From IMG/VR virus record IMGVR_UViG_3300031992_000025, positions 33,932 through 97,931 of that record: a stretch of DNA of 64,000 bases. One strand, written 5' to 3'. The notes beneath the pieces are model-generated. The model was given only the letters and a program-made list of their open reading frames with translations, was not told the origin of the DNA and did not search any database. The position numbers were made by a program, and so were the translations under genes. Origin of the DNA: a virus (Duplodnaviria > Heunggongvirae > Uroviricota > Caudoviricetes). This document shows, in pieces, positions 7,886 to 64,000 of the stretch (positions within the stretch are counted from its first letter, which is position 1; the number at the start of each line of letters is the position of its first letter).

Positions 7886-8797
7886 ATGGCTGATACAACT
7901 TATACTGGTTGGAAAAGATGAAATCCAACATCTGAGGAATGAATTGATTTATATACAAATAATACAGTTCCATTCCAACTTAAAGAAAATGAATATTTAA
8001 TTGTTATGGCAACTGACGGCAGCACAACATTTTATTGCTATGAAAATGGCCAATTAAGAAAGTTTACTGGCGGTTCCATTAAAACAATTAAAGATACTAC
8101 CCCGGTTTTATTAGAAGAGCCAAAACCAAAGCAAGAGAGTAAACAACGATCTTCTACTCCAAAATATTCTAAGGGTAAGAATGTTGTAATTACTCCTAGA
8201 AATGAAGAACAAGTTTGTGCTTTTGACTTAATGAAAGACCCAACAAAAACAGTTAAATTGTTAACTGGAACTTGGGGCACAGGTAAAACCTTAATCTTAG
8301 TGTCTGCTGCATTAGAAGCTTTAAAAGCTGGACGTTTTAAAAGAATTGTCTGAATTAGAAATAATGTTGATGTTAAAGATACCAAAGATTTAGGTGCTTT
8401 ACCAGGTGAAGTAATTGATAAATTACTTCCATTCTTAGGACCTTTTATTGATCATGCTGGTGAAAACAGTGTTCGAACTATGCTAAATAAAGGAACTCTT
8501 GTTGTAGAACCTTTGCAATCTTTGAGGGGAAGAAATTTTGATAACACATTAATTATGTGTTCAGAAGCTGAAAACTTAACTAAAGAGCATATACAACTTA
8601 TTATTGCTCGTGCTGCTGAGGGCAGCGAAGTTTGGTTTGATGCTGATAACAGACAACGTGATAAAGCTTCTTTTGAGAAATCAAAAGGAATTGAAACACT
8701 TATTGAAAGATTTGCAGGACAAAAATTATTTGGGTATGTTCATTTAATTAAGTCTGAGCGTTCAAAGACTGCTGCAATGGCAGATTTATTAAATTAG
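7886..8797 (+). CDS. phoH: PhoH-like ATPase (three in-frame TGA read as sense)
   Basis: GTWGTGKT Walker A, LVVEPLQSLRGRNF, DADNRQRD motifs of PhoH family; frame continuous across TGA at about 7918, 7948 and 8351; RBS TAGGAGTTACT-ATG. Confidence 0.75.
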
Positions 8798-8808
8798 GAG
8801 GACTTCTA

Positions 8809-9474
8809 ATGTCACTTGTTATAGCTATAAAAGATAAAAATAGAGTTGTACTTGGTGCAGATAAGCAGGGAAGTGTGAGTGATTTTAAAGATCATTCATG
8901 CACAAAAATTTGGCCTGTTGAGGAGCTTCCAGGTGCCATTATGGGCGGCGTTGGTTCAGCGCGTGCCTCTCAAATTATTCAGTATGCTAATATTATTGAC
9001 AAGAATCTTATTGGCAAAGAAATTTCAACTGATTTTATTATTTGTTCATTAGCTCCAACAATTGCAGCTGGCTTAAAAGCTAACGGATTTAATTTAGAGG
9101 TTAAGGAAAATGAACTTTGCGAACTCATGCCAAATTCATTTATTTTTGCTTATAAAGATAAGGCTTGGATGATCTGGAATGATTTAAGCGTTACTGAAAT
9201 TGATGATTATTTAGCTATTGGCTCAGGTAGTGATGTTGCACGTGGAGCATTATTTGCTACAAAGAAGCATAACCCATTTGAGCGTATTGTTACAGCAATT
9301 GATGCTGCAGCTGAATCAACATTATTTGTTGATGATGATATTGATTTATTAGCAACAGACATATGCGAAGGTGATGATGAAAAAATTGCAAAAGCTTTAG
9401 GTTTTGAGATTAAAGAAGTTAAAGAAGAAATTAAAAAATCTGAGGCTAAAGCAAAAAAAACAAAAAAGAAGTAA
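8809..9474 (+). CDS. HslV/proteasome-beta-like Ntn-hydrolase peptidase
   Basis: MSLVIAIKDKNRVVLGADKQ N-terminus and AIGSGSDVARGAL resemble HslV TTIV...GDGQ and GSG motifs; Ser instead of Thr after Met; Lys-rich tail. Confidence 0.5.
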   Translation: MSLVIAIKDKNRVVLGADKQGSVSDFKDHSCTKIWPVEELPGAIMGGVGSARASQIIQYANIIDKNLIGKEISTDFIICSLAPTIAAGLKANGFNLEVKENELCELMPNSFIFAYKDKAWMIWNDLSVTEIDDYLAIGSGSDVARGALFATKKHNPFERIVTAIDAAAESTLFVDDDIDLLATDICEGDDEKIAKALGFEIKEVKEEIKKSEAKAKKTKKK

Positions 9475-9493
9475 TTAATTAACTTCTTATAAA

Positions 9494-9527
9494 GCATCCT
9501 GAGCATATGTACTCAGGATTTTTTATT
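9494..9527 (+). terminator. rho-independent terminator
   Basis: ATCCTGAG-CATATGTA-CTCAGGAT-TTTTTATT. Confidence 0.7.
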
Positions 9528-9538
9528 GTATAATATAT
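9526..9538 (+). promoter_or_regulatory. extended -10 promoter TTGTATAATATAT
   Basis: immediately after terminator, 14 nt before ATG of 9552 gene. Confidence 0.55.
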
Positions 9539-9551
9539 AGAGGTATTATAT

Positions 9552-10157: not shown

Positions 10158-10234
10158 CGTCCTATGGAGAAGTAGACTAACTCGGTGCCCTCTCAAGGCA
10201 TTATTCATGGGTGCAAATCCCATTAGGATGACCA
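10158..10234 (+). tRNA. tRNA-Glu(CTC)-like, atypical T-loop TGCAAAT
   Basis: hand fold: acceptor CGTCCTA/TAGGATG, anticodon loop CTCTCAA, CCA encoded. Confidence 0.35.
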
Positions 10235-10351
10235 AAATTAAAAAAAATATTTACAAATTAGAAAAAAAGTTGTATAATATTTATGAGCGTTGAAAAAAGA
10301 TACGCTAAATTAATATGTCAGCAGTGAGCTGGCAAGAAAGACGGAGAAAGT

Positions 10352-10477
10352 ATGAAAAAGACAATGACAATCGTATTATGGAATTGTTCCAATGGATTAG
10401 GTCGCCTTAATTCATATTTTAGCCATGAACAAGATATTAATTTTGGCAAGGGCTCTCCGGTATATTTGACCAGGTAA
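10352..10477 (+). CDS. small ORF (41 aa)
   Basis: GGAGAAAGT-ATG RBS downstream of promoter TTGTATAATATTTAT. Confidence 0.25.
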   Translation: MKKTMTIVLWNCSNGLGRLNSYFSHEQDINFGKGSPVYLTR

Positions 10478-10504
10478 CGTTTAATTACTTTGATTAAATA
10501 AGAA

Positions 10505-10532
10505 CAGGCGAGCCCAAAAGGTTCGCCTTTTT
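10505..10532 (+). terminator. rho-independent terminator
   Basis: AGGCGAGCC-CAAAAG-GTTCGCCT + TTTTTAATT. Confidence 0.6.
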
Positions 10533-10536
10533 AATT

Positions 10537-10621
10537 GCCCAGATGATGGAATAGGTAGACATAGGGGTCTTAAAAACCCCTGGCGCAAGCCGTGCCGGTT
10601 CGAGTCCGGCTCTGGGCACCA
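10537..10621 (+). tRNA. tRNA-Leu(TAA)
   Basis: acceptor GCCCAGA/TCTGGGC, anticodon loop CTTAAAA, long variable arm, CCA encoded. Confidence 0.8.
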
Positions 10622-10626
10622 ATTAT

Positions 10627-10712
10627 GGGAGCGTATTCTTCTAAGGACGGAGGGCGGTCTGTAAAACCGTTGCCATTTGGCTGGCTGGGTTCGATACCCA
10701 GAGCTCCCACCA
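10627..10712 (+). tRNA. tRNA-Tyr(GTA)
   Basis: anticodon loop CTGTAAA, long variable arm, T-loop TTCGATA, CCA encoded. Confidence 0.7.
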
Positions 10713-10720
10713 GAAAACAT

Positions 10721-10797
10721 GTTGAAGCGAATCCGACGGTTTTGGATGACGGTCTGTGAAACCGTATCATAGGGTCCGACTCCCTAGCTTCAACCCA
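10721..10797 (+). tRNA. tRNA-His(GTG)
   Basis: anticodon loop CTGTGAA; 8-bp acceptor with extra 5' G (G-1). Confidence 0.7.
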
Positions 10798-10802
10798 AAT
10801 AC

Positions 10803-10878
10803 GGTCCGGTAGCTCAGTTGGTAGAGCACGTGCCTGAAGAGCATGGTGTCGGCAGTTCGATCCTGCCCTGGACCACCA
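10803..10878 (+). tRNA. tRNA-Phe(GAA)
   Basis: GGTCCGGTAGCTCAGTTGGTAGAGC..CTGAAGA..GGCAGTTCGATCCTGCC. Confidence 0.8.
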
Positions 10879-10897
10879 TTTAAAAGAAAGGAACAGT

Positions 10898-11314
10898 ATG
10901 AAAGTTGTATTCTTAGACATTGATGGAGTCCTAAATGATGCAATCACAACAATGGACTTACTGGACGATAAGCCAAAGAAAGAGCATTTAGAGTGTCTAA
11001 AAGCAATTATTGATGCTACAGATGCTAAAATTGTCTTATCTTCAACTTGGCGATTATTCCCAAGCGCAAGAAATGATGTAAAAAATGCTCTAAGAAATGT
11101 CGGTCTTGAATTTATAGACAAAACAAAAGAACTTAGAGATAGAGCATCTGAAATTAAAGAATGGCTAAGTAGACACCCAGAAGTTGAAAAATTTGTAATC
11201 TTAGATGATGAAGAAATTTCTGGAAAGTTCCCTGATAACTTAGTTCAAACGACTTTCTACAGAGGCTTATTGCCAGAACATGTTGAAAAGGCAATAAAAA
11301 TCTTAAATTCTTAA
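10898..11314 (+). CDS. HAD-superfamily phosphatase-like protein
   Basis: VFLDIDGVLND motif I (DxDG), small 138-aa HAD-like fold; RBS AAAGGAACAGT-ATG. Confidence 0.5.
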   Translation: MKVVFLDIDGVLNDAITTMDLLDDKPKKEHLECLKAIIDATDAKIVLSSTWRLFPSARNDVKNALRNVGLEFIDKTKELRDRASEIKEWLSRHPEVEKFVILDDEEISGKFPDNLVQTTFYRGLLPEHVEKAIKILNS

Positions 11315-11349
11315 AAATTATATTTACAATTAGAAATGGTTGTAGTATA

Positions 11350-11580
11350 ATATAAATGTTGAATATGATAGCTGAAAAGACCATCACTCAGTAAGCTTGA
11401 ATAGAGTAGGTATGACGACTCCTGACACCGCTTAGTCGTCACGTCTATGGGCAAAATCTCATAGCAGCAGGCTAATGCTGTAAAACTTAGTCTAGGGTAC
11501 AGCTAATACGAACGTGGTAAAGGCCGAGGCCGAAGAAGGGCATAACAGGAGCGGACACCCTCTAAAGAGTGGGGCCACCA
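11350..11580 (+). ncRNA. candidate structured ncRNA ending in GGGGCCACCA
   Basis: ORF-free about 230 nt between promoter TTGTAGTATAATATAAAT and tRNA-Ile; internal hairpin TGACGACT..AGTCGTCA. Confidence 0.3.
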
Positions 11581-11585
11581 GATAT

Positions 11586-11661
11586 TGGAGCGTAGCTTAG
11601 TTGGTAAAGCACTCGGCCGATAACCGAGAGACCGCCGGTTCAAGTCCGGCCGCTCCAACCA
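11586..11661 (+). tRNA. tRNA-Ile(GAT)
   Basis: anticodon loop CCGATAA, acceptor TGGAGCG/CGCTCCA, CCA encoded. Confidence 0.8.
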
Positions 11662-11665
11662 ACAT

Positions 11666-11741
11666 AGGGGAGTAGCCAAGCGGTAAGGCATCGCCCTTTG
11701 AAGGCGACAGTACGAAGGTTCGATCCCTTCCTCCCCTGCCA
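11666..11741 (+). tRNA. tRNA-Gln(TTG)
   Basis: anticodon stem TCGCC/GGCGA loop CTTTGAA. Confidence 0.75.
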
Positions 11742-11744
11742 ATA

Positions 11745-11833
11745 TGCTGTAATAATGTAACAGGTAGCAGGTCCTAGCGCCATAGACGTATGGCAAATGC
11801 AGAGGGGAATTGGTTCAAGTCCAATTTACAGCA
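11745..11833 (+). ncRNA. tRNA-like element lacking an anticodon (hairpin GCCATA-GACG-TATGGC in place of anticodon arm)
   Basis: acceptor TGCTGTA/TACAGCA, T-arm AATTGG-TTCAAGT-CCAATT. Confidence 0.35.
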
Positions 11834-11840
11834 ACTATCT

Positions 11841-11915
11841 TGAGATGTCGACAAGCGGTAAGTCATCTGGCTCTGAACCAGATATTCCTTGGTTCGAATC
11901 CAAGCATCTCAGCCA
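11841..11915 (+). tRNA. tRNA-Gln(CTG)
   Basis: anticodon stem TCTGG/CCAGA loop CTCTGAA, CCA encoded. Confidence 0.75.
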
Positions 11916-11917
11916 GT

Positions 11918-11982
11918 AGAGCCTATACTTATTTCTGTCTAGAGACAATTGCCTGCAACGCGATCATTATAGTTAGGCCAAT
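11918..11982 (+). repeat. bipartite bulged-helix motif copy 3 (AGAGCCTATACTTATTTCT ... AGTTAGGCCAA)
   Basis: GCCTA-T-AC pairs GT-TAGGC; 34-nt insert; immediately after tRNA-Gln CCA. Confidence 0.7.
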
Positions 11983-11986
11983 AAAT

Positions 11987-12060
11987 AGGAGTTTGGTATA
12001 GTGGCCGTGCCTTGGTCTCCAAAACCAATGAGGTGAGTTCGATTCTTACAACTCCTGCCA
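11987..12060 (+). tRNA. tRNA-Trp(CCA)
   Basis: anticodon stem TTGGT/ACCAA loop CTCCAAA. Confidence 0.75.
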
Positions 12061-12065
12061 AATAT

Positions 12066-12154
12066 AGAAGGTTGGGAGAGCTGGTCTATTCCGCTTGTCT
12101 AGAAAACAAGAATGTCGCAAGGCATCATCCGTTCGAATCGGATACCTTCTGCCA
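12066..12154 (+). tRNA. tRNA-Ser(AGA), type II, A34
   Basis: anticodon stem CTTGT/ACAAG loop CTAGAAA, long variable arm; anticodon assignment tentative. Confidence 0.5.
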
Positions 12155-12158
12155 GAAT

Positions 12159-12246
12159 GGAGAGTTGGCCGAGTGGTCGAAGGCGTCTGTCTTGAAAACA
12201 GAAGTGGGGCAACCCACCTGGGGTTCGAATCCCTAACTCTCCGCCA
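12159..12246 (+). tRNA. tRNA-Ser(TGA)
   Basis: anticodon stem TCTGT/ACAGA loop CTTGAAA, long variable arm. Confidence 0.8.
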
Positions 12247-12291
12247 TAAAAACTGTTTACAACTCAGTATAAATGTTGTATAATATAAAAT

Positions 12292-12366
12292 GCGGGTATA
12301 GACAAGTGGTTAAGTCATGCGCCTTTCACGCGTATATCGCCGGTTCGAATCCGACTACCCGTACCA
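12292..12366 (+). tRNA. tRNA-Glu(TTC)
   Basis: anticodon loop CTTTCAC, preceded by promoter TTGTATAATATAAAAT. Confidence 0.7.
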
Positions 12367-12477
12367 AATTAATTTAATATTAGTACCTACTTGCTTAATG
12401 CTAGCAACAAGCAGACAAAAAAGAATGCCAGGTGAAACCGCTTTTACAGGTTTAGGTTGGGAGTAGCCACTTATTAT

Positions 12478-12552
12478 GGGTCATTAGCTCAATGGTAGAG
12501 CGGCCGGCTGTTAACCGGTTGACGACTGTTCGATTTCAGTCATGGCCCGCCA
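12478..12552 (+). tRNA. tRNA-Asn(GTT)
   Basis: anticodon stem GCCGG/CCGGT loop CTGTTAA. Confidence 0.75.
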
Positions 12553-12556
12553 TACA

Positions 12557-12660
12557 TGCGGTTGTTCGAAATTGGTATACGGTAATAGTTAAGCTATTAC
12601 AAGGCACTGGCAAGCATGCTGAAGTCATGTGTTTAGAGGTTCAAGTCCTCTCATCCGCAA
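12557..12660 (+). ncRNA. atypical long tRNA-like element (about 104 nt)
   Basis: T-arm AGAGG-TTCAAGT-CCTCT, acceptor-like GCGGTTG/CATCCGC, extra hairpin GTAATAG-TTAAG-CTATTAC. Confidence 0.3.
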
Positions 12661-12665
12661 CAAAT

Positions 12666-12760
12666 ATGCCCTTGGTCGTCTAATATGGTTAAGACGCGGC
12701 GTTATAAAGATAGAAGTGTACAGCTATCAAGTTGAGATGTGGTTACAATCCACTAAGGGG
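12666..12760 (+). ncRNA. atypical long tRNA-like element (about 95 nt)
   Basis: closing helix GCCCTT/AAGGGGC, T-arm GTGG-TTACAAT-CCAC, no clean anticodon arm. Confidence 0.3.
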
Positions 12761-12770
12761 CAGCTAAAAT

Positions 12771-12845
12771 GGATCGCTCGTATATCAGCTAGTATACTTG
12801 GCTGTCTACCATGGGAGGAGGGTTCGATTCCCTCGCGGTCCGCCA
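12771..12845 (+). tRNA. tRNA-Asp(GTC)
   Basis: anticodon loop CTGTCTA (one stem mismatch), acceptor GGATCGC/GCGGTCC. Confidence 0.55.
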
Positions 12846-12847
12846 AA

Positions 12848-12931
12848 AGAGCCTATACTTATTTCTTAATGGTTTTTGAAGGTTCGATTCCTTCATTACC
12901 CGCTTTGGGTGATGATATTAGTTAGGCCAAA
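12848..12931 (+). repeat. bipartite bulged-helix motif copy 4 enclosing a permuted tRNA minihelix
   Basis: AGAGCCTATACTTATTTCT + T-arm GAAGG-TTCGATT-CCTTC + acceptor 3' ATTACCC-G + CTTT + complementary 5' strand GGGTGAT + AGTTAGGCCAA. Confidence 0.65.
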
Positions 12932-12982
12932 GTTTATTTAGAAAGGAGAAAGCTTATGTAATTGTTAAAGGAGGACATAACG

Positions 12983-13234
12983 ATGAGTTATAGTCGAAAA
13001 CAATTTGATAAGCAAAAGCTAAAAAAGCTTGCAAAAAATAGCTGTAATGGCTGGAAAGGTGGCGCATATTATAGTCGCTATTTAGGCCATTATGTTCGTT
13101 GGTGGAAAAGTAAAGGTAGGAATAGTAGATATGCTTACTATAAAAAATTCTATCGCAAACGAATGAGAAGATTTGCAAACAAAAATGGTTGGTATTCTAA
13201 AAAAGAGTTCGATTTAATTTGGACTTGTTGGTAA
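12983..13234 (+). CDS. small basic Arg/Lys/Tyr/Trp-rich protein
   Basis: RBS AAAGGAGGACATAACG-ATG; 83 aa, highly basic. Confidence 0.4.
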   Translation: MSYSRKQFDKQKLKKLAKNSCNGWKGGAYYSRYLGHYVRWWKSKGRNSRYAYYKKFYRKRMRRFANKNGWYSKKEFDLIWTCW

Positions 13235-13239
13235 AATTA

Positions 13240-13253
13240 TTGTATAATATAAT
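13240..13253 (+). promoter_or_regulatory. extended -10 promoter TTGTATAATATAAT
   Basis: drives ncRNA candidate plus tRNA-Met cluster. Confidence 0.55.
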
Positions 13254-13254
13254 A

Positions 13255-13537
13255 GAGCTTACTTAACTGTTGGCTTAGAAGCAGCCATCATATAATGAGT
13301 GACCAACAGAACGTAAGGTGGTGCATCACTGAAATGAAGCGTCCCTAAATTACTGGATGAGAAATGGGACGTAAAACTGTCGGGAGTCAATAAAAATCTA
13401 TAATTTGGTAAGGGTGGTCAGAGTACCATTCTTAACTAAGAGCGTGCTGTAGGCACAGTAAATGCAGTATAATCAATGTTATAGAGTGCCCTAAGAGTCT
13501 TTGGCGTAGTAGCACATAAGTAAGTTCTTTATAACAT
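13255..13537 (+). ncRNA. candidate structured ncRNA (about 280 nt) transcribed from TTGTATAATATAAT promoter
   Basis: ORF-free, GC-richer than surroundings, directly upstream of tRNA-Met. Confidence 0.35.
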
Positions 13538-13613
13538 TGCGGGGTGCTAGCAGCGGTAGCTAACTGGGCTCATAACCCAGAGGTCGTAGGTTCGATTCCT
13601 ACCCCCGCGACCA
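13538..13613 (+). tRNA. tRNA-Met(CAT), initiator-like
   Basis: anticodon stem CTGGG/CCCAG (three G-C pairs next to loop) loop CTCATAA. Confidence 0.7.
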
Positions 13614-13617
13614 ATAT

Positions 13618-13732
13618 TGCATGATAGTCGAGTGGAAGAGACGACCGCATACATAAGCGGTGGACACAGCTGAAAGTAAATTCTAGATAGGAGTAAGCTA
13701 GAGCGGAGGTTCGATTCCTTCTCATGCGACCA
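13618..13732 (+). ncRNA. atypical 115-nt tRNA-like with 8-nt anticodon-type loop and about 45-nt extra arm
   Basis: acceptor TGCATGA/TCATGCG-A-CCA, T-arm GGAGG-TTCGATT-CCTTC, stem ACCGC/GCGGT with loop ATACATAA. Confidence 0.35.
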
Positions 13733-13734
13733 GA

Positions 13735-14010
13735 GGCAGGTTTTCATCGATTTTAGAGCCTCGCACATAAGAAAATCGATAGATAGACGGACTATGTACA
13801 AGATATGTCTAATCTAAAAAAGGAAAGGTTGTACACCAGAAATTTGGTCGGCTAGTTGGCGTAAACCTAGCAATAGGAGCGTTTGCAACAGACCCTCAAT
13901 AACTGCAGTGAGAGGGCAAGCACGAGCTTACAAGAAGAGACTGCGACGGATGAAATATTCCTAGAGCTCTTGAGCTGAGAGCACAAGGTTCACTGGGCAA
14001 AGAACAAAAC
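13735..14010 (+). ncRNA. candidate structured ncRNA (about 275 nt)
   Basis: ORF-free, 9-bp hairpin ATCGATTTT/AAAATCGAT with loop AGAGCCTCGCACATAAG. Confidence 0.3.
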
Positions 14011-14012
14011 AC

Positions 14013-14089
14013 GGACCGTTGGTGTAGTGGCCTTGCATGCTTCTCTGTCACGGAAGAGATCACGAGTTCGAATCTCGTACGGTCCGCCA
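14013..14089 (+). tRNA. tRNA-Asp(GTC)
   Basis: anticodon stem CTTCT/GGAAG loop CTGTCAC, acceptor GGACCGT/ACGGTCC. Confidence 0.75.
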
Positions 14090-14094
14090 TAGTT

Positions 14095-14202
14095 AGAGCC
14101 AATACTTATTTCTTAGCGAGGTAGCTCAGAGGTTAGAGCAGCAGATATTAATCTGAAGGTCGTAGGTTCAAGTCCTTCCCTTGCCAGGCCTAGTTTGGCC
14201 GA
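14095..14202 (+). repeat. bipartite bulged-helix motif copy 5 enclosing an anticodon-less tRNA-like unit
   Basis: AGAGCCAATACTTATTTCT ... GTTTGGCC (GCCAA/TTGGC covariation); insert 14115-14186 has acceptor, D-arm, T-arm and hairpin CAGAT-ATTA-ATCTG instead of anticodon loop. Confidence 0.65.
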
Positions 14203-14205
14203 TCT

Positions 14206-14282
14206 GGCTGGGTGGCCAAGCTGGTTAAGGCACAAAGCTCATACCTTTGGGATCGTCAGTTCAAATCTGACCCCAGCTACCA
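14206..14282 (+). tRNA. tRNA-Met/Ile2(CAT), elongator-type
   Basis: anticodon stem CAAAG/CTTTG loop CTCATAC. Confidence 0.7.
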
Positions 14283-14285
14283 TTT

Positions 14286-14363
14286 AGAGCTTATACTTAT
14301 TTCTTGAATGCTGTGGTTCGAATCCACCTTGCCTGTGGGGAGCGGAAAGTAGTTAAGCCAAAT
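14286..14363 (+). repeat. bipartite bulged-helix motif copy 6 enclosing tRNA 3'-fragment
   Basis: AGAGCTTATACTTATTTCT ... AGTTAAGCCAAAT (GCTTA/TAAGC covariation); insert has T-arm GTGG-TTCGAAT-CCAC. Confidence 0.65.
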
Positions 14364-14365
14364 AC

Positions 14366-14441
14366 GCACTCTTAACTCAACTGGGAGAGTGCTACCCTTA
14401 CAAGGTAGAAGTTGTAGGTCCGAGTCCTACAGAGTGCACCA
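14366..14441 (+). tRNA. tRNA-Val(TAC)
   Basis: anticodon stem CTACC/GGTAG loop CTTACAA. Confidence 0.8.
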
Positions 14442-14581
14442 TGGCATGTATGCAATTAGAAAACGCAACCTGCCGGTAAAGTAGGCGCTCCGAGTAGTCT
14501 CGAAGTAGGAGCTTTGTGGAATATTGCTAAATCGAGACTTTAGTAACAATATTCTAGGTGTAATTCCCACCATGCCAACCA
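14442..14581 (+). ncRNA. 140-nt tRNA-like RNA (acceptor TGGCATG/CATGCCA-A-CCA) with large internal insertion
   Basis: 7-bp terminal helix plus ACCA; T-loop-like GGTG-TAATTCC-CACC. Confidence 0.3.
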
Positions 14582-14585
14582 ATTT

Positions 14586-14660
14586 GCAGACGTAGGACAA
14601 TGGTTAGTCCATCGCCTTGCCAAGGCGAATATACGGGTTCGATTCCCGCCGTCTGCTCCA
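14586..14660 (+). tRNA. tRNA-Gly(GCC)
   Basis: anticodon stem TCGCC/GGCGA loop TTGCCAA. Confidence 0.7.
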
Positions 14661-14731
14661 CCAGGACAGATAAAGATTAGTTTCTTTATTAGGTTCTAAG
14701 GCTGGACAAATCGATAAAACCAGCCAGTTAT

Positions 14732-14806
14732 GCGGGTGTCGTCCAACGGTCAGGGCCTCTGCCTTCCAAGCAGAAGATACCGGTTCGATTCCGGCCACCC
14801 GCTCCA
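14732..14806 (+). tRNA. tRNA-Gly(TCC)
   Basis: anticodon stem TCTGC/GCAGA loop CTTCCAA. Confidence 0.75.
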
Positions 14807-14834
14807 TTAGCAGTATTTAAAAGGAGAAAAAACA

Positions 14835-14930
14835 ATGAAAACAATGAAACTCAGTCGTCTAAGTTGTCGAAGCTGTAAAGCTTGTTTTCGTTGTCTCAGT
14901 ATAAATACCGCGTTAGCTCAGCTGGATTAG
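14835..14930 (+). CDS. Cys-rich micro-ORF (31 aa, C-x2-C-x2-C-x2-C) reading into tRNA-Arg
   Basis: strong RBS AAAAGGAGAAAAAACA-ATG. Confidence 0.25.
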   Translation: MKTMKLSRLSCRSCKACFRCLSINTALAQLD

Positions 14931-14984
14931 AGCATTTGGCTACGAACCAAAAGGTCGAGGGTCCGAATCCTTCACGCGGTGCCA
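14907..14984 (+). tRNA. tRNA-Arg(ACG)
   Basis: anticodon stem TTTGG/CCAAA loop CTACGAA. Confidence 0.75.
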
Positions 14985-14985
14985 A

Positions 14986-15060
14986 GCTTTGGTAGCCAAG
15001 TGGTTAAGGCTTCGGTCTGCAACACCGACATCGTGGGTTCGAATCCCACCCAAAGCTCCA
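14986..15060 (+). tRNA. tRNA-Cys(GCA)
   Basis: anticodon stem TCGGT/ACCGA loop CTGCAAC. Confidence 0.8.
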
Positions 15061-15095
15061 AAATCTAGCTTTTTATGTTGTATAATATAATAGTT

Positions 15096-15173
15096 CCTCC
15101 CGTAGCTTAGTCAGGTTAAAGCGAACGCCTTATAAGCGTTAGATCGGTGGTTCAAATCCACCCAGGAGGACCA
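15096..15173 (+). tRNA. tRNA-Ile(TAT)
   Basis: anticodon stem AACGC/GCGTT loop CTTATAA; preceded by promoter TTGTATAATATAAT. Confidence 0.6.
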
Positions 15174-15248
15174 TCAAGCTAGTTATTTGCCTGTCAGAAG
15201 CCCTGTTAGAGGAAGCTGGGCTTATAATTAGCTTATTTTAATAAAGAG

Positions 15249-15845: not shown

Positions 15846-15883
15846 TTAAGTCTCATTGAAAATCTCACTGAAGAAAACTTGCT

Positions 15884-15971
15884 GGAGGCATGGAGTAATG
15901 GTATCTCATCACCCTGCTAAGGTGACCATCGGGCAACTGATGTCCGCGTTCGAGTCGCGGTGCCTCCGCCA
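15884..15971 (+). tRNA. tRNA-Ser(GCT)
   Basis: anticodon stem TCACC/GGTGA loop CTGCTAA, long variable arm. Confidence 0.8.
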
Positions 15972-15973
15972 TA

Positions 15974-16306: not shown

Positions 16307-16308
16307 TT

Positions 16309-16392: not shown

Positions 16393-16399
16393 TTATTCT

Positions 16400-33789: not shown

Positions 33790-33790
33790 T

Positions 33791-54674: not shown

Positions 54675-57600
54675 ATGTCAGCTAATAACTTCTTATTAAC
54701 TTTAGATACTATAGCACCTCGTGGCGGAATTATTGATCCAGCGGCTCAAGTTGAAGTCAAAGGTAGCATTCAGTTAACTATAAGTTATAACTCAAATGCC
54801 GATGCAAAATATAATGGCGCTGCCTATATGAAGGTATGGTATGATACTACTTCATCACCATCTTCAGTTCCAGCAGATAATGTAGTTCCTTGGACTACTC
54901 TTAATACAACACCAACACTTTCTTTCGCAAGTAATGGCTATTACTATGCTCACCTTGTCCTTTTAGATAATGTTGGAAATCAATCTCAAATTTACAATTC
55001 ACCAATGATCGTTTCTGATACTCAAGCTCCAGTTATTAGAGAGCTTTGGGCATATGATAAAACAGTTCCAACTGGATATGAAGATTTACCTGGCACAGCT
55101 ACATCATATACTGCAGCTTCAACATATACAGCTGGCACAGATTACTTCTATATAAATGAAAGTAGCCAATATGTTCCAGATTATAGTATTACAAGTCAAG
55201 CAACATTTAATGCTTCTAAAACTGAGCATGGAACATTATATACAAGGTCTGGTGTTGAATACCCAGAATATCAAAATAGCCATGTATATACTAATGAAAG
55301 CACATTTGGAATTCATATTAAGGCTTATGATACAGGCACAACTCAATCAGGCCTAAAAGAAGTCAGAATTACTGGTAATTTAGTTTATCCAAGCAGCCAA
55401 ACATGTGTTACTATTGCAGGCAGTAGTTTTAATAATACAACAAATGTTTATGAAGGTGATTTAACCTTTGCTGGTGGTGCAACTCCAGGAACACAAACAA
55501 TTACAGTTACTGCTGAAGACTATTCTGGCAATACTACAACATCTACTTGTACAATTATCTATGACCCAAATCCATCAACTGGTAATTTTGCTTTATATAG
55601 TGTAGGCACAAATGATTCTTTACCAGCTTATTTAAATTATAATTCATGCCATATGACATTTAAGATGGTTATTAATGCTACTGATGCTACAACTGCTGTT
55701 AAATACTATCAATTAGTCGGTGATATTGTAGATGCTGGCTCACCAGTAGCTTGGCCTACAAGCGGTGGTACACCAGCTAGTTCCGTCACACTATCTGCTT
55801 TACATATTAGTAGTGGCGATGGCACAAAGAGCTTTGGGGTTAAGTTAATTGATGCTGCAGGCAATATTACAACTCTTCCAACACAAACAAGAGTTTATGA
55901 TGATACTCAGCCAACAGGTACTTTAGTTGCGTCAGGCGTTGAAGATTCAAATCATAATATTTGGATTTCAGCTGGTACTGGCATGTCATTAGCTGCAAGT
56001 GCTGTTACACAATCAACTATTACCTATACTGCAGCTGATGCTACATCTGGTTTATATAGTGGTTGGCCAAAATTCTATATTAGAGATGGCGGAACTGACT
56101 ATGAAATTCCAGGTGTTATTACAAGTGGTACAAATACTGCAGCTGCTGGTTCATTTACCTTTGATATGACCCATCCATCAGATGTTGCAGCACATATTCA
56201 TACTGGTGCAAATATTATTGTTATGAAGCTTAAAGATAACTCAGGCAATACAAGAGAAGCTACATGTACAGTTAATATTGAAGCAACATGGACACTTGGA
56301 ACTCCAACATTACATGGATACTTACTTTGTGCTAATGAATTTAATCATACAACAAAAGATTTAATTTCTGCTACAGTTGTTGATAATATTAGTGGTGCTT
56401 TCTCTGAGCGCGACTCATTGCAAGTTTGGACAAATACAACACAAAATTCTACTACAACTTCTGCTTCACAGATTACATGGACAGGAAATAATCAATTAGT
56501 TGAAAGTGAGTCAATTAGTAAGACATTTGCTGAAGATTCTGCTTCTAACTATCTCCATGTTAAGGCTGTAAGTATTGTTGGAAACGTTGCTTATGCACAC
56601 ATTCAATTTAATGTTGATAAAACTGGCCCAACATACAGTGAAACTTATTCAGCACATGTTAATAATGCTACAACAAATATTACACTTTCAAATGGTAATG
56701 ATAATTTAAGTGGTATTTATCAAATTAAGATTGAACCAGGCACTAATACTCCAATTGAGTCTGGTACATGCTCATGGACAGCTTATGAAGATAAATCATA
56801 TGCTATTACATTAGGACCACGAACACAAGGTGGAAATCCTGAAGATGGTAATTATTCAGTTATTATTACCGTTAGAGATAGAGCTGGAAATGAAACTCAA
56901 AAAATAATTAATTGGGAATATGATAATACTATTCCAGGTGGTGCTCTTGTCTTAAAGAAAGCATCACAAGATGTTAATAAAGATGACCCATCTCCAGAGT
57001 CTTCATTCAGAGCTCAAATTACATTCTATGATTCAGCTGATTCAAGTGATCCACACTATGACCCAACAGATGATTATGGAACAATTCAATATAAATTATA
57101 TGGTGATTTTGGTACATCTATTCCAACAGGTCAGTCTGCTGCAGCAAGTGCAACAGCTGAAAATGATGCTCAATGGGTTACAATGACTGCTAATACAATG
57201 ACAATTGGTCCATTATATTGTACTAAAAATGCTAATGATGCTCCTGCTGATGGTGTTGAAAAGAAAATTTATCTTAAACTTAAAGATGATGCTGGAAACG
57301 TTACGCAACCAATCATGGTTTCATTCGTTTATAACCCAGTTACAGCAGAGCTTACAATTGACCATTTAAGTCATAATAGAATTAGCTGTGTCCATGCTAG
57401 AAGAAAAACAGGTACATCAACTATTTCTGATGCAACATTACCAAGTGAATATGCTTCAGAGACAGGCTCAGAAGACTATGCAGATAAGATTTGGTTCAGA
57501 GTAACATGTCCACAAACAATTCAAGAATGGAAAGTTGCAGCATTTGTTACTTATCCAAGTAGCCAAACAACTGGTGCAGCAATTACACCAATGTCAACAC

Positions 57601-57848
57601 ATGGTTCAGGAGCTAACATTTCAAGCTCATCTGGATATCATCAAACAGGCACAAGTGTTACTGAGTGGTGAGTTGAAGTTGATGGCAAAGACTATCGACA
57701 AGCAATTCGTGCAGCCAAGAATTTAACAGGTAATATCGATTCTGACTCACCTGAAGTTGATGGTGTGTACTACATTGTTGTATTTGGTAAGAACTTAGCT
57801 GGTGCTTGGTCAATGGCCGGCACTGCAGCTGAAGTTCCATCTGCCTAA
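54675..57848 (+). CDS. large structural protein (1057 aa), Thr/Ser/Gly-rich, Ig-like repeats (TGA-recoded near C-terminus)
   Basis: RBS AAAGGAGATAATAT-ATG after TTTGCTAAATTAATT motif; continues through TGA at 57669. Confidence 0.5.
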
Positions 57849-57959: not shown

Positions 57960-60359
57960 ATGGCAAGTTATCCATTAGTAACATATACAAACTTAAAGCA
58001 TAAAGTTATTACTGGGCTAAGTAATGGTAGTCTTGTTATTGGTGATGAAAGTATTACACCTGTTTTTTCTAAAACAACAGAAAATATTTTACCTTTCAAA
58101 GTTTCATTTGTTAGCCCATATAATCAAATAACTGGAACATTTACTGCAAACAGAGCTTTAAATGCTTTTGAGGTTAGAATTTCTCCAGCTGAAGAAACAA
58201 GTTACGGTCCTGGTGAAGGTATCTGTGCTTTTTCAATAGTTGGTATAGCTGGAAATACTTCAAATAATTTTATTATTCCTATTAATTCGGCCACTTGTTT
58301 ATGTAGCCCATCAAATACTTATAGAATTTGTTTATTAGCTCAAAGTGAATTAGACTATTCTTGGGACTGCACTCAATTATATATGGTAATTGATACAAAT
58401 ACTTCATTTACTAATACTTATACTGAGGTGGAATTTCTTAAGTCTACTGGCACACAATATATAGATACAGGTCTTGGTGTTTCATCCTCTATTAAAGTAG
58501 AAATTACTTTATTACCAACAGTTCAAGGAGTTGATGAGCGCTTTTTTGGTGCTTATGATAATGGTATTTTCTTAGGTCAATTGGCTAGCAAATGGCGTTA
58601 TGGTAGCACTTGTGAAAAAAATGACATTGCAATTGATTATGCAACTAAAACTACTGTAACAGCGAATGGCGCAGCTTGAACATTTAATGGAGTAGAAAAA
58701 ACTGCTAGTACTATTGGAAATCGTGGTAATAGAATGCTTATTTTTGGAGCATCTTATAGAAGTGATGCTCTGTATGGAGCGGGTCGTTGTCAAATTTATA
58801 CTTGCAAGATTTGGGATGGGGCTAATTTAGTTAGAAATTTTGTTCCTTGTATTAGAAATTCTGATAATAAACCAGGAATGTATGATAGAGTAAATAATGT
58901 ATTTTACACAAATCAAGGTTCGGGTGAATTTTTATATGGCCCATTAAAGTCAGTCCCACAAAAATATCAACAAGTAAACTATATTGAGTCTAGTGGTAAA
59001 CAATATATTGATACTAATTTTGTGCCATTAATTTCTAATACTTGAAAAATTGAAGCTGATGTATCATTTCATACTTCTGATGTAAGGCAAGCAATTTTTG
59101 GAAGCTATGGCAGAAATAATTCAACTAATAATTATCTATGCTGTGAAATAACTGCAGGAAATAAATTTAGATTAGTTAGCTATAATGAAGATAGAAATTC
59201 ATCGGCTACTATGGCAGTAAATAAACTATATAAATTAATAGTATATAATGATGCCAATAAAGCATATTTGAGAATTATGGGTGAAAATACTGATGAAACA
59301 ACTGATTATGTCACATTAATAGATAATAATAACTCAGAGCTACTATTTAAAGATTATAGAGATAATATTTTTACGCTTGAATCAATTAGGCTTTATTCAT
59401 TTAAAATAAGTAATAATACCGGTCCAGTGCGTCACTTAGTTCCATGTTATAGAAAAGCCGATAATATAGCTGGAATGTTTGATTTAGTAGGTAATCAATT
59501 TTATCGTGACCCAGAATCAACAATTAACTTAGGTGATATTTCGGCTACTTATACAAACTTTAATTATAATACAAGTTATAATTTAGATAGCTGGGGCGGA
59601 AATGTTGGCACTGCTAAATTTTTTGGTTCAGGTGGGTATGAGAATGCTCCATATTATGCTTATTATAAAACGACTAATGGCACTTCTGGTGGTTCGTATA
59701 AAGATACGGCAGATAATATGACTATTGAAGCTGGTAAGAAATATACAATGTCAATTTATGTAAAAGCAAGTAGAGAAGTAGCCAGTAATAGTGAGTATCT
59801 TTTTACATTAAATAGACACAGTGATAATTATTACATTACATATAATTCTCAGGTTAACCTTACAACAGATTGACAAAGACTTACTAAAACATTTACTGCT
59901 TCTGCTGCCCAAGCTGGTAATTATTGTGTGAGAAATATTATTTATACAACTGTACCAGCCGATACAACAGTTTATTTTTCAGGATTTCAATTAGAGCTAA
60001 ATGATCATGCTACCCCATTTGCTTTAGGAACAAGAGATTTTAGTAAAGGTAGTAACGAAAATAATTGCAACTATCTAAAATATACTCCAACTGATTATGA
60101 TAGTTATGAAGTTCATTGTGGCGGGTCAGCACAATTTAGTGAATTGTGATTAATTAGTTGCCCGAGTAGTGCTAGAATACAGACAATAAAATTAATAAGG
60201 AGTATGACAGGCTTAGCCTTAAAAGAGGCCAAAGATTTAGTAGAAATTTGTCCATGTTGTATATATGATTCTACAAATAATCAAGAGTTCTTATTAGATA
60301 AATATGATGAATATGCAAGTCAATTTGAAGCTTGCGGAGCAGCTATTGAGCTAAGATAA
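57960..60359 (+). CDS. structural protein (799 aa, TGA-recoded) with C-terminal ribosomal protein bL12 (L7/L12) C-terminal-domain-like module
   Basis: frame continuous through 4 TGA; last 60 aa [60 protein letters not shown] aligns with bL12 CTD [23 protein letters not shown]...LEEAGAEVE. Confidence 0.5.
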
Positions 60360-60456: not shown

Positions 60457-61179
60457 ATGGCAGATTTCCAAAGTAAATTCTCTGGTATTGAAGTAGATAC
60501 AACTATACGTAGATTATTAAACTGGGCCAATGCTGGCTTCCCAAGTGCTTTTAATAACCTATCTAGCGGTGATTGGTCAACATATGATAATATTACTGTT
60601 GATAGTATTGATTATGCTGTTATATGGCGAATTGCTCCAACAAGCTCAAATCAAGTTTATGGCCTAGGCATAGATAAAAATACTGGTCGTTTGTATCAAA
60701 TTTATAATAATAAAGGCACATATAGTGTTTCAAATGTTGGTATTGATACAAGAAATACAGCTGGTTCAACTAACTTAAACTCAAAATTATACTTAGTTGG
60801 TGCTCAACAACAGGCCACTGATGCTCAAACTTATTCTCAAGCCCTTGTTTATACAGAAGGTGGAAAGTTATATTCAAATAGCTCTGAAGTTGTTAACAAT
60901 GCTGATAATCAAGACATTGATGGAAAAAAATGATTCGAAAAAAATACCGGAACATCAGAATATTTAAGAATTAATGATGACGGTGACCCAGATGAAGATG
61001 CTGATCGTCCAGAAAATATGATGGGTGAAAATATGCAAAGTGATCCAGACTTATTTATTTATTCAACTGGCTTTAATATTAAAGATGGCGGTACAGAGGC
61101 TAGTATACAGCTAAGCTTTCCAGATAGAAGCGGTAAAATGGGTCTTGAAGTTGAAATTGTTGACTTAACGGAGCTATAG
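60457..61179 (+). CDS. hypothetical virion protein (TGA-recoded)
   Basis: RBS AAAAGGAGTAAAAGT-ATG; continues through TGA at 60931. Confidence 0.45.
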
Positions 61180-61180
61180 T

Positions 61181-62311
61181 ATGAGATATAAAGTAGTTGT
61201 TAATGGCGTATCCCATACTATCTGGGACATTCATCAACAATATGAAGTCTATTGTGGCTCAGTTGATTCAAGCACAAAAGATAGAGTAATATTAACATTT
61301 AATGAAGATACTCAATCATTTATTGCTAAAATTGAAAATCCAAGCCCAAAAACATTAGATTTATTCAATAGAGGCAAACTTGGATTCGGTATCTCTAGAT
61401 GTAATTTTGGTAAAAAAGACCATTGGCATCGTGGTGGAGATAATATGAGCTCAGTTAATGCAACTATGAATGGAACATGAAGCGCTTCATATAATGACCC
61501 AATTAAAAATGCAAAGAAAGCTAAATATCATCCAAGATGAAGTCGTGTTGTTAATAATTTAACTAAAGTGACAGATTTAGAATATATTGAAATTCCAGCT
61601 AGCAGAATTCCAGGCCCTGGGCATCATGAATATACGCGTAAAACTATTGTATGAAACTATTATAGAGGATTATTAGTTTCAATTGTTGGAAACCCTGATA
61701 GTATTAATACTATGGAAAGGACCCGTAGCTTAAATTATAAAACTAATTGTAAATCTATTAAATTAAATTATAGTAAGTCTACTGGACGATATTCAATTCC
61801 AACACCAGGCGAAAGTATTCTTGATGTTAATGCTACATTAATCGGAAATAATACCTATCAAATATTTATTAATAATATTACAGGCAGTTTCTTAAATATG
61901 TATCAAAATAATTATTTAATGATTGGTGTTAAATATTATGGGCCTCTCTGAAGTTCTAGCGGTCATGGGAGTAGCTGACATCGTGGTTCAAACTCTTCAA
62001 ATCAGCACAGAATAAGTATGGGGATGGAAAAAGATAATTTAAGTAAAAGGCACTATGGTCATCGAGTTCAATCTCAAACAGTACAAAACTTAATGTTTAA
62101 TTTCTCGCCCGATTTAAATTTAGCACCATACCAGCATCTTACTAGATTAAGTGGCCAAGATGGTCATAGAACATATGATGTAAAAATTGATGGCACTTGT
62201 GAAATTTATTTATATTATCACTGCACAGGGCATAAAATTTGCTCTTTAGTTACAGGAATTCCATATAATACTTGGTATGAAGATCAATATTGAGATTATA
62301 ATGATGAGTAA
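61181..62311 (+). CDS. hypothetical virion protein (TGA-recoded, about 7 TGA)
   Basis: single frame continuous 61181-62311 across TGA codons. Confidence 0.45.
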
Positions 62312-62317
62312 TTAATT

Positions 62318-62400
62318 TACCGCGGATACCGGTGGTAGACGCGTGATTCACATTTTCGGTTAGGCCACGTTGGTTCGCGGCCGTATTGGTGGGGCAGGGG
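62318..62400 (+). ncRNA. GC-rich (about 60%) structured island in AT-rich context
   Basis: CCGCGGATACCGGTGG...CGGTTAGGCCACGTTGGTTCGCGGCCG...GGGGCAGGGG. Confidence 0.3.
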
Positions 62401-62525
62401 TACTTCTTTAAATAAAATTAAGAAGGAAAATGTGAACTTGCAGATATACATCGGATTCATATAGATTATAGGTTGTCTATAAACCTTAAAATAGACAAAA
62501 AAAGAAAATTTACGGAGGTCAATTA

Positions 62526-64000
62526 ATGGCTAATTTACAAAAGATTATCAAAGTAACTCAGGCACAGTATAATACATTGGCCTCTGGAGGTACTGTTGGT
62601 GATTATACAGGATTAGATGAAAATTATCTTTACCTTGTTAAAGATGAAGGTATTGAATCTTTAATTACCAGAGTTACTTACTCACAATTGAAAAGTCTTC
62701 GTGATAATAAGCAATTATTACCAGGAATGAGATATCAAATAACAAATTATAAAACGACAACAAAAGCATATAATACATCAGCCGCTGGCCATGATTTTGA
62801 TGTTATTGTTTTAGCCTTGTCAGAAGACACTCTTGCAGAAGATGCAAAAGCTATTTGGCATAATGGCGACAGTTATTTTATGCGTCAATATTTAAATAGA
62901 GCGCAGTGAATGACACCATTACCAGATTTAGCTACTATTGATACTAAATTTAAATATTTTATTCAATCCGGCAATGATCCACGAGAAAACTATGACCGTG
63001 GAAATAATTTTACTCAATTAACAACTGTAGTAAATCAAGATGATGTTGAAGTACCTGCAGTGTTAGATACAGCACCAGATGGTGATGATTTTTATGATTG
63101 CTATTATGTTTATGACGGTACATATCAATTAATTAGGGGCCAAAATGAGTTAGTTTCTGTTCAGTATGTAATGAATATTTGGAATAATGATATAGAGTAT
63201 ACTAATGTTGGTAATAGTAGATATAAAAGTAGTGATATTTTTACTGTTATTGATACCGAGACTAGAAATAAGCCAGTTTCAGCATCTTGGTATGATGGCG
63301 CAGATCCAGTTGGTAATAAAGAATGCATTTTATATTCTGTTTATGAAGAAAATGGTGAAACACGCTATTCAACAGATGACCATGGTAACGTTGCTCAAAT
63401 TCGTAAAATGACAACTGCAATTCACCCTCGTTGAAATATAAGCGTACCTGCTTTTTATGGCAATAAGCATATTTGGTCAAATGAGCAAGACCCAGAATAT
63501 GATGATCCAGATGAAGAAACAGTCGATTATGAGCATATATATGTATTTGATGGCCAAAATATTATTGATGGTGATGTTTATGATCGTTGAATTAAATTTA
63601 GTAATAGTCCAGACCCAGAAGAATTATATTTAGAGGATATGAATTTCTGTACATACTATTTAACATGAAATTTTGTTGATGCAGAGTTAGAGGAAATCAA
63701 TATTCCACTTTTATATAAATCTGATGGATTATATAAAGGCTTTACTTTAGAAACTGGTGTAGACTACGATGATGTCTTTAAGTATTGAGATAATTATGAA
63801 TTAGATGGCGTTGAATATAGCAGATGACTTAAATACTCAGGTAATTCTGGCAGTAGCGGGCAAACGAATGATATTTATTATTCATTTATTTTAACACAAA
63901 AAATTGTGGAAGATAATGAATTTACTATTACACAAGATCAATTAACAAATGCAGCTGGCGCTGCTGTAACAGTTTATGATAAATGGGTTGAATATTATCC
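62526..64000 (+). CDS. virion protein, partial (continues beyond window), TGA-recoded
   Basis: RBS TTACGGAGGTCAATTA-ATG; frame continuous through >=7 TGA to window end. Confidence 0.45.

Follow-up and report, generated by a model that had tools for sequence, protein, structure and literature searches.

The question raised by this locus is what the codon TGA means to a phage whose longest genes it interrupts repeatedly, and what in the infected cell reads it. The DNA is a stretch of 64,000 nucleotides (nt) from a virus of the Caudoviricetes, positions 33,932 to 97,931 of IMG/VR record IMGVR_UViG_3300031992_000025, and the whole of this 64-kb stretch is referred to here as the window. Its GC content is 34%, in place of the 30% given in an earlier note made from the sequence alone, and every convincing gene lies on the plus strand. 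That note had claimed that TGA is read as a sense codon in many genes of the window.

TGA is a sense codon in the window. When only TAA and TAG are treated as stops the longest frames grow from 3000, 2622 and 2292 nt to 7395, 3723, 3177 and 2400 nt, and when TAG is treated as sense instead the longest frames stay essentially the same, so that the earlier statement that TGA alone breaks the long frames holds and TAG yields no such merging. The longest frame, 45090-52484, features 13 in-frame TGA codons and no TAA or TAG across 2465 codons. In a stretch of the window that has no open reading frames (ORFs), TAA and TAG together make up ~5.8% of codons per frame (56-64 per ~1037 codons), and at this density the chance of the 45090-52484 frame is ~1e-64 by hand arithmetic; the 7.4-kb frame was thus rightly said not to be a product of chance. 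The comparison of genetic codes was informative in the longest-ORF test, however, the total ORF length was uninformative between codes because spurious ORFs inflate every relaxed code. TAG is a normal stop and is found at 16 of 61 gene ends, with the proviso that ending in TAA or TAG is circular for the TGA-containing ORFs. The following genes carry TGA in frame.

7886-8797, plus strand: PhoH-like ATPase (Pfam PhoH, E = 5e-32), 3 TGA at residues 12, 19 and 156
27311-28123, plus strand: homing endonuclease of the DUF559 family (Vsr-like PD-(D/E)XK; Pfam) in the second tRNA array, 7 TGA
29055-29852, plus strand: GIY-YIG homing endonuclease (weak match to Pfam GIY-YIG), 5 TGA and 1 TGG
29876-30295, plus strand: small protein with an N-terminal transmembrane helix, 3 TGA and no TGG
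37868-38404, plus strand: membrane protein with a coiled coil, adjoining the holin, 2 TGA, of which TGA-128 lies opposite tryptophan in the related locus L001
40092-43811, plus strand: minor-tail-like ORF (PHROG minor tail protein), 1239 codons, 2 TGA
45111-52484, plus strand: giant tail/host-recognition ORF, 2457 codons, 11 in-frame TGA and 2 more upstream of the first ATG
54675-57848, plus strand: large structural ORF, 1057 codons, 1 TGA, orthologous to the end of L001
57960-60359, plus strand: fibre-like ORF with a CBM_4_9 domain, 799 codons, 4 TGA
61181-62311, plus strand: structural-region ORF, 376 codons, 6 TGA against 3 TGG
62526-64000, plus strand: hypervariable fibre-like ORF cut by the window end, 6 TGA

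The identities of PhoH and of the two homing endonucleases had been proposed from the translations and were borne out by Pfam, with the start of the GIY-YIG gene placed at 29055. The membrane protein at 37868-38404 is probably part of the lysis cassette. Two other candidates were discarded: a five-TGA ORF at 35535-35810 is a gene-picking artefact, the gap being filled by two small TGA-free ORFs, and the ORF at 10625-11314 overlaps two tRNAs, so its two TGA codons were not counted.

The assignment of TGA to tryptophan is strongly supported by three independent lines of sequence evidence, namely homolog alignment, invariant sites and synonymous drift. When all window proteins were compared with 92 related loci, the residue opposite TGA was tryptophan at 18 of 37 positions, phenylalanine at 5 and glycine at 1, which is the same spectrum as that found opposite the phage's own TGG codons. 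In the giant tail ORF the homologs L001-L004 align tryptophan at residues 98, 472, 585, 745, 1109, 1111, 1239 and 2274. Three of these homologs use the standard code (L002, an IMG/VR contig; L003, phage NatCom_3357; L004, Bacteroides Hankyphage p00), and against them alone tryptophan is found at 9 of 19 aligned TGA positions, with residues 745, 1109 and 1239 being tryptophan in two or all of the three. The tail homologs of L002 and L003 have no in-frame TGA and use TGG for tryptophan at the TGA sites of the window. The alignment of the minor-tail-like ORF to L001 likewise continues through TGA-873, which lies opposite tryptophan.

The invariant sites are found in the DUF559 endonuclease and in PhoH. 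Among 53 homologs of the endonuclease, residue 142, the TGA in the GW motif, is tryptophan in 52, as the earlier note had expected of this motif, and residue 150 is tryptophan in 50; three further TGA sites are tryptophan in 27-35 of the 53, so that tryptophan is found at 5 of the 7 TGA sites. In PhoH, tryptophan occupies all three TGA residues (12, 19 and 156) in 120 of 120 close homologs. Invariant tryptophan sites of both proteins are thus encoded by TGA, and the PhoH protein P0055 is an exact match to the window PhoH with TGA read as tryptophan. Synonymous drift is seen between close relatives. The window PhoH uses TGA for residues 12, 19 and 156 but TGG for 130, whereas the 95%-identical L095 and L096 have TGA at 12, 19 and 130 and TGG at 156. 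Similarly, a DUF559 relative (L093, 85% identical) has TGA at the same 7 sites and at 2 more where the window has TGG, and the DUF559 homolog of L094, a 296-kb contig, lies in the same position after a tRNA-Lys cluster and encodes tryptophan by TGG only.

The distribution of TGA over the genes is strongly bimodal. Tallies were made for genes of at least 100 amino acids, divided into the first 37.6 kb (28 genes, hereafter left-hand) and the lysis/tail block that follows (16 genes, right-hand), and the left-hand gene identities were taken from Pfam and PHROGs. The following genes belong to the TGA-free class or to the same regions.

2250-4406, plus strand: kinase-phosphatase-RNA ligase fusion (Pnkp/Rnl1-like; Pfam AAA_33, Metallophos and RNA_lig_T4_1), 0 TGA and 8 TGG
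8809-9474, plus strand: HslV/proteasome-like protein (Pfam/PHROGs)
25230-25835, plus strand: HNH endonuclease (Pfam/PHROGs)
30363-37536, plus strand: TGA-free gene block that includes the next five genes
30363-31157, plus strand: methyltransferase (Pfam), 0 in-frame TGA
31229-32800, plus strand: flotillin/SPFH-like protein (Pfam), 0 in-frame TGA
32863-33789, plus strand: Thg1-like enzyme (Pfam), 0 in-frame TGA
35826-36752, plus strand: phosphoesterase (Pfam), 0 in-frame TGA
36811-37536, plus strand: phosphoesterase (Pfam), 0 in-frame TGA
38430-38795, plus strand: holin-like gene (PHROG holin families), 0 TGA and 3 TGG

In the left-hand part 24 of the 28 genes have no in-frame TGA, the only ones with it being PhoH, the two homing endonucleases and the small membrane protein at 29876-30295. 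The right-hand part, which begins at 37.6 kb with the lysis cassette and continues with tail and fibre genes, has TGA in 11 of its 16 genes. Over the whole window TGA is carried by 34% of genes. The Pnkp, Thg1-like, phosphatase, methyltransferase and flotillin-like genes, previously described as TGA-free, contain 0 in-frame TGA by count. The broader statement that early genes lack TGA stands as a strong tendency only, since PhoH in the early half is recoded, and the statement that all structural genes from 37.9 kb onward carry TGA fails for 5 of the 16 genes, including the holin-like gene.

The codon counts are equally uneven. The 23 left-hand TGA-free genes that were counted have 91 TGG and 0 TGA, whereas the right-hand block has 83 TGG and 37 TGA. 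TGA thus supplies none of the tryptophan codons in 24 of the 28 left-hand genes, and its share among them is 0.31 in the late genes. The difference between left and right gives a Fisher p = 6e-11 for groups chosen after seeing the data, and the chance of 0 TGA among 91 tryptophan codons at the late-gene rate of 0.31 is ~2e-15 by hand arithmetic. The A-ending share of Lys, Glu and Gln codons is 0.79-0.81, and with a bias of this size a neutral TGA should dominate over TGG; TGA is therefore actively avoided. As a stop it is depleted too, since not one of the 24 left-hand genes without in-frame TGA ends in it, whereas the standard-code relative L094 still does so at 1 of 22 stops. Several TGA codons lie 1-6 codons before the terminal TAA or TAG, at 40072, 54021 and 62291 (also 4988), three of them in genes of at least 100 amino acids against 0.9 expected, and these late TGA codons could be former stop codons that are now read through.

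The explanation that we consider likely is a stop-recoded phage on a standard-code host, in which the early genes are readable by the host and UGA is later switched to tryptophan by a phage tRNA(UCA). Most left-hand genes, including those for RNA repair, tRNA maintenance, the methyltransferase, the SPFH protein and the phosphatase, would be translatable by a standard-code host since they are TGA-free. In an unmodified host, release factor 2 (RF2) would truncate the products of the TGA-containing genes, that is, the lysis-cassette membrane protein, the tail and fibre genes, both homing endonucleases, PhoH and the small membrane protein. These genes would be translatable only once the infected cell reads UGA as tryptophan. 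The switch would most likely be a Trp-type tRNA(UCA) that is encoded by the phage outside the window and charged by the tryptophanyl-tRNA synthetase (TrpRS) of the host. We infer the host's code, the role in timing, and the identity and location of the decoder.

The alternative that survives best is a host that itself uses genetic code 4, Mollicutes-like and without RF2, whose code the phage shares so that no switch takes place. This would fit the clear meaning of TGA as tryptophan, the lack of a suppressor tRNA, release factor 1 (RF1) or TrpRS gene in the window and the examined parts of relatives, and the fact that none of the 24 TGA-free left-hand genes ends in TGA. Such a host is nonetheless improbable. 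TGA would be neutral in it, and even favoured at ~80% A-ending codons, which is at odds with the 91:0 ratio of the 23 left-hand genes, and TGA is only 31% of tryptophan codons even in the late genes. Recoding of 34% of genes also falls well below the ~90% that Borges et al. reported for host-matched code-25 phages (bioRxiv 10.1101/2021.08.26.457843). Additionally, relatives use the standard code: L094 has TGA at 1 of 22 stops and, in frame, 0 TGA and 84 TGG. Homologs of the tail protein are found in Bacteroides phages, and no Mollicutes phage of such size and tRNA load is known. The earlier note had left a code-4 host and a recoded phage side by side; of the two, the recoded phage on a standard-code host is favoured and the code-4 host is unlikely given the 24 TGA-free genes among 28, the 34% and the standard-code relatives.

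The decoder was looked for among the 38 tRNA genes of the window, which form two arrays at 10.1-16.5 kb and 25.1-28.3 kb.

10158-16485, plus strand: tRNA array 1, 26 tRNAs, no UCA anticodon
25073-28281, plus strand: tRNA array 2, 12 tRNAs, no UCA anticodon
11987-12060, plus strand: tRNA-Trp(CCA) with G73, an encoded CCA end and U11:G24 (hand-parsed cloverleaf)

The standard tRNA-Trp(CCA) reported earlier at 11987-12060 was confirmed. It was rejected as a UGA reader of the Hirsh type because it features G24 instead of the Hirsh A24.

Several results weigh against a standard-code host with a late switch by a phage tRNA(UCA). None of the 38 tRNAs of the window has the anticodon UCA in ARAGORN with default and relaxed settings or in Rfam at gathering and permissive thresholds; the two programs agree with the earlier hand search on this point, and the sole match with a tca anticodon, 6591-6667, was rejected because it falls within a gene and emerges only with a threshold that yields almost twice as many calls. 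RF1, TrpRS and a deaminase are absent among the scanned window proteins. A tRNA(UCA) is likewise absent from 21 kb of the 95%-identical, 168-kb relative L095, which include an orthologous array of 23 tRNAs, from the 10 kb upstream of the window start in the 137.6-kb relative L108, and from 41 kb of the recoded IMG/VR contig behind L001, where large recoded structural genes and no tRNA are found. The late translation of the lysis, virion and selfish genes that this reading implies is deduced from gene function only. Strong termination contexts are not significantly avoided at the base that follows a sense TGA (p = 0.10 and 0.41), nor does this base differ significantly from the one following TGG. 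Finally, PhoH is recoded although it lies in the early part, and 5 of the 16 late genes lack TGA.

A canonical decoder is found in a more distant relative. A collection-wide scan for tRNA-Trp anticodon arms carrying U in place of C34 gave 23 hits, one of which, in L128, lies on the 223-kb contig IMGVR_UViG_3300021400_000048, the same contig as L008. This hit is a 75-nt Trp-type tRNA(UCA) with G73 and an encoded CCA, at 1332-1406 of L128 on the minus strand, standing alone inside a TGA-free module. The kinship of the contig is seen in its Thg1 and in its ortholog of the window gene 34505-35377, each 57% identical. Other ORFs of the contig have in-frame TGA, for example 5 TGA and 0 TGG in 274 codons, and this relative is probably itself recoded. 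Because the L128 contig is a relative with a tRNA(UCA), the wider family does contain Trp-type opal suppressors. The slot 3' of gene 34505-35377, which is the site of the tRNA(UCA) in L128, is filled in the window by two small TGA-free ORFs. The L128 tRNA(UCA) features a promoter-like TTGACG...TATAAT upstream, and a GC-rich, apparently structured segment of ~160 nt (L128 1560-1720) lies between the preceding ORF and the tRNA.

Other neighbourhoods were also searched for a UCA anticodon. The fibre-like ORF at 62526-64000 is conserved in other phages over its N-terminal ~40 residues only, and the neighbourhoods of these N-terminal homologs (L101, L102) belong to other TGA-recoded phages; the anticodon UCA is absent among the tRNAs near them, and also in the neighbourhoods of the DUF559 homologs L150-L154. 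An array in L130 with both tca and cca tRNAs was rejected as not syntenic with the window. In L152, a 60-kb phage contig with a DUF559 relative in its tRNA array, a tRNA with the anticodon CTA, an amber suppressor, is found at 15841-15915, and L152 may come from a phage with recoded TAG whose endonuclease belongs to the same mobile family.

A slightly weaker alternative than the code-4 host is that UGA is read as tryptophan without a dedicated tRNA(UCA), by an edited or modified tRNA-Trp(CCA) or by its overexpression together with inhibition of RF2 by the phage. The tRNA-Trp(CCA) is present while UCA is absent among the 38 tRNAs and in the orthologous array of the 95%-identical relative, and the lineage is rich in tRNA-processing genes (Pnkp/Rnl and Thg1, with a CCA-adding enzyme and YqeY in a relative). 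Borges et al. also found a suppressor tRNA detectable in only 35% of code-4 genomes (bioRxiv 10.1101/2021.08.26.457843). This decoding is doubtful because over half of the genome lies outside the data seen, the tRNA-Trp is ordinary with U11:G24, the window has no deaminase or gene related to release factors, and the more distant relative has a canonical Trp-type tRNA(UCA). A particular form of it, in which the switch would run without a canonical suppressor through a tRNA toolkit made up of tRNA-Trp(CCA), Pnkp/RNA ligase, the Thg1-like enzyme, the CCA-adding enzyme of relatives and an 11-copy family of cassette RNAs described below, is just as hard to credit; the routes could be editing or modification of the tRNA-Trp anticodon or a noncanonical decoder processed out of the cassette, and they too are speculative.

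The remaining alternatives, namely that TGA is glycine in a code-25 host (Absconditabacteria/Gracilibacteria), selenocysteine, or a mark of pseudogenes or sequencing defects, can be given almost no credence: code-25 phages do occur in gut metagenomes and ARAGORN tags any tca anticodon as SeC, however, glycine is found at 1 of 37 TGA positions against 23 for tryptophan and phenylalanine together and TGA occupies invariant tryptophan sites of DUF559 and PhoH, ~55 sites are far too many for selenocysteine and Rfam gave no match of the selenocysteine insertion sequence type, and the frames are broken by TGA alone, never by TAA or TAG, at identical positions kept in independent assemblies. Glycine, selenocysteine and sequence errors are thus regarded as excluded on the alignments, the invariant sites and the TGA/TGG swaps.

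The fibre-like ORF at 57960-60359 features a homolog of the C-terminal domain (CTD) of ribosomal protein bL12 (L7/L12) at 60150-60356. The domain lies directly after the in-frame TGA-730 and would therefore be made only by read-through. A role of the bL12-CTD as code-change machinery was rejected because it is a tandem-repeat domain in many unrelated proteins (2-7 copies each), and in the fibre-like ORF it is probably a structural module.

The left-hand part of the window (1-37600) is an island of RNA-repair and translation genes, with the Pnkp/Rnl1-like fusion, DUF5662, PhoH, the HslV-like protein, the Thg1-like enzyme and SPFH/flotillin. The first 10 kb of the relative L108, which lie upstream of the window start, add a peptide deformylase, a DNA ligase, a CCA-adding enzyme and YqeY, and also a HAD "Swiss Army Knife" RNA-repair domain. 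A tRNA-His is absent among the 38 window tRNAs, although the Thg1-like gene is present.

The non-coding gaps of this island contain a structured-RNA cassette in 11 copies, which often begins right after the 3' end of a tRNA.

5052-5124, 5401-5457, 5547-5596, 11919-11979, 12849-12928 and 14096-14200, plus strand: cassette copies
14287-14359, 24825-24883, 26249-26368, 26942-27006 and 28285-28396, plus strand: cassette copies

The 5' strand of the cassette reads GA-NNNNN-y-RCT-TATTTCT and the 3' strand AGY-nnnnn-CC. Although seven different 5-mers and both RCT variants occur, the arms pair without a mismatch in 11 of 11 copies, which amounts to compensatory changes, and shuffled sequence gives ~0 such arm pairs. 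The cassette is kept in the relatives L095, L108, L007, L086, L110, L114 and L121. It has no full-length match in Rfam and may represent a family of Y-RNA-like molecules or serve as a frame for processing. The arms enclose variable inserts of 27-90 nt, which range from nothing recognisable through a T-arm with a hairpin to a complete tRNA. The complete tRNA, 14115-14186, is a cloverleaf with an Rfam score of 49 bits, a 6-nt anticodon loop (UAUUAA) and an A1xC72 mismatch, and ARAGORN assigns no anticodon to it; another tRNA without an assignable anticodon is found in the relative L094 at 13836-13907. The inserts at 26280-26348 and 28317-28385 are circularly permuted tRNA-like modules in which a T-arm is followed by a loop-closed acceptor stem and a D-arm, and the first of them has a perfect 7-bp acceptor stem followed by A-CCA. 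These modules match the tRNA-like part of Rfam YrlA with 38.1 and 33.5 bits, below the threshold. Phage Y RNA-like RNAs that adjoin Ro60 genes are already known (PMC4201824). In Pfam and PDB sequence searches no Ro60/TROVE gene was detectable near the permuted modules.

Directly 3' of three cassette RNAs lies a conserved ORF, 5635-7725, of 696 codons from stop to stop, and L108 has the same three cassette copies upstream of the same large ORF. Its first ATG is only at 6289, so it probably has a non-ATG start, and the ortholog in L095 has 677 amino acids. A single-sequence AlphaFold model with a predicted local distance difference test (pLDDT) score of 36 suggests an all-helical N-terminal part of ~420 residues and a beta-rich C-terminus. 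An identity as Ro60/TROVE was rejected, as there is no Pfam or PDB sequence match and a pLDDT of 36 is too poor for a fold search. A further unusual feature for a phage genome is a 3.1-kb stretch at ~21100-24210 that has no ORF of more than 78 codons on either strand and a GC content raised to 38-44%. No alternative set of stop codons opens a long frame in it; the stretch contains no internal repeat and matches neither Rfam nor any of the fetched loci. Its predicted folding beats shuffled sequence only locally (z = -4.1 near 21.9-22.1 kb).

Metagenomes contain this lineage in abundance: with PhoH as the query, hundreds of proteins of 87-99% identity were retrieved, and the contigs that carry them reach 146.5, 168 and 167.7 kb. 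Judged from the contigs of relatives, the phage would be large, about 137-168 kb. A megablast search of 40089-52484 against GenBank phages gave no near-identical record, and exact 40-mers taken at the window end had no match among viral or metagenome contigs. A host search with PhoH against GTDB genomes matched only a distant bacterial PhoH.

Each element of the recoding has already been published for other lineages, and the window phage adds another lineage, well supported and abundant, to the recoded phages. Its distinguishing feature is the combination of a very large tRNA set, an ordinary tRNA-Trp(CCA) and the lack of UCA in the arrays of the window and of its close relative. The lineage is thus a good test case for UGA decoding in code-4 phages without a detectable suppressor tRNA. 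On the practical side, standard gene callers would split the 7.4-kb tail gene into 14 pieces and would shatter and mis-annotate the late half, so that any later use of the sequence depends on code 4 being recognised.

Among known systems, the closest likeness is to the Agate, Jade and Sapphire phages of gut and rumen described by Borges et al. (bioRxiv 10.1101/2021.08.26.457843; later Nat Microbiol 2022). For these phages, infection of hosts with the standard code and a delay of late genes by the recoding have been proposed. They and the window share TGA as tryptophan, recoded structural and lysis genes with many early genes in the standard code, preferential recoding of homing endonucleases, rarity of TGA as a stop and the existence of close standard-code relatives. 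Homing endonucleases are among the most strongly recoded families in the Agate phages (Borges et al.), and the 34% of recoded genes in the window falls within the 26-71% that was found in phages on standard-code hosts (Borges et al.). The genome of ~130-170 kb is also alike, and a suppressor tRNA is often undetectable in these phages, as it is in the window. A place among the Agate phages is only suggested by the similar genome size, and the window has no terminase gene. The window differs from these phages in its recoded PhoH and in its 38 tRNAs in 64 kb without UCA, and from the Jade phages in that no "code-change operon" of RF1 and TrpRS lies upstream of its lysis cassette. The TAG-recoded (code 15) crAss-like and Lak phages follow the same logic, in which the reassignment of a stop codon touches only part of the genome and affects late genes, with suppressor tRNAs as the proposed switch, however, in them TAG becomes glutamine, whereas TAG is a normal stop in the window. 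In Mycoplasma and Spiroplasma and their phages (code 4) UGA is tryptophan as in the window, but it has this meaning throughout the genome, there is no RF2 and TGA is preferred over TGG, whereas in the window most early genes lack TGA and even the late ones use it less often than TGG. The code-25 phages of Absconditabacteria and Gracilibacteria also have in-frame TGA as a sense codon, which in them is glycine and is found in ~90% of genes, whereas in the window it is tryptophan and is found in 34% of genes.

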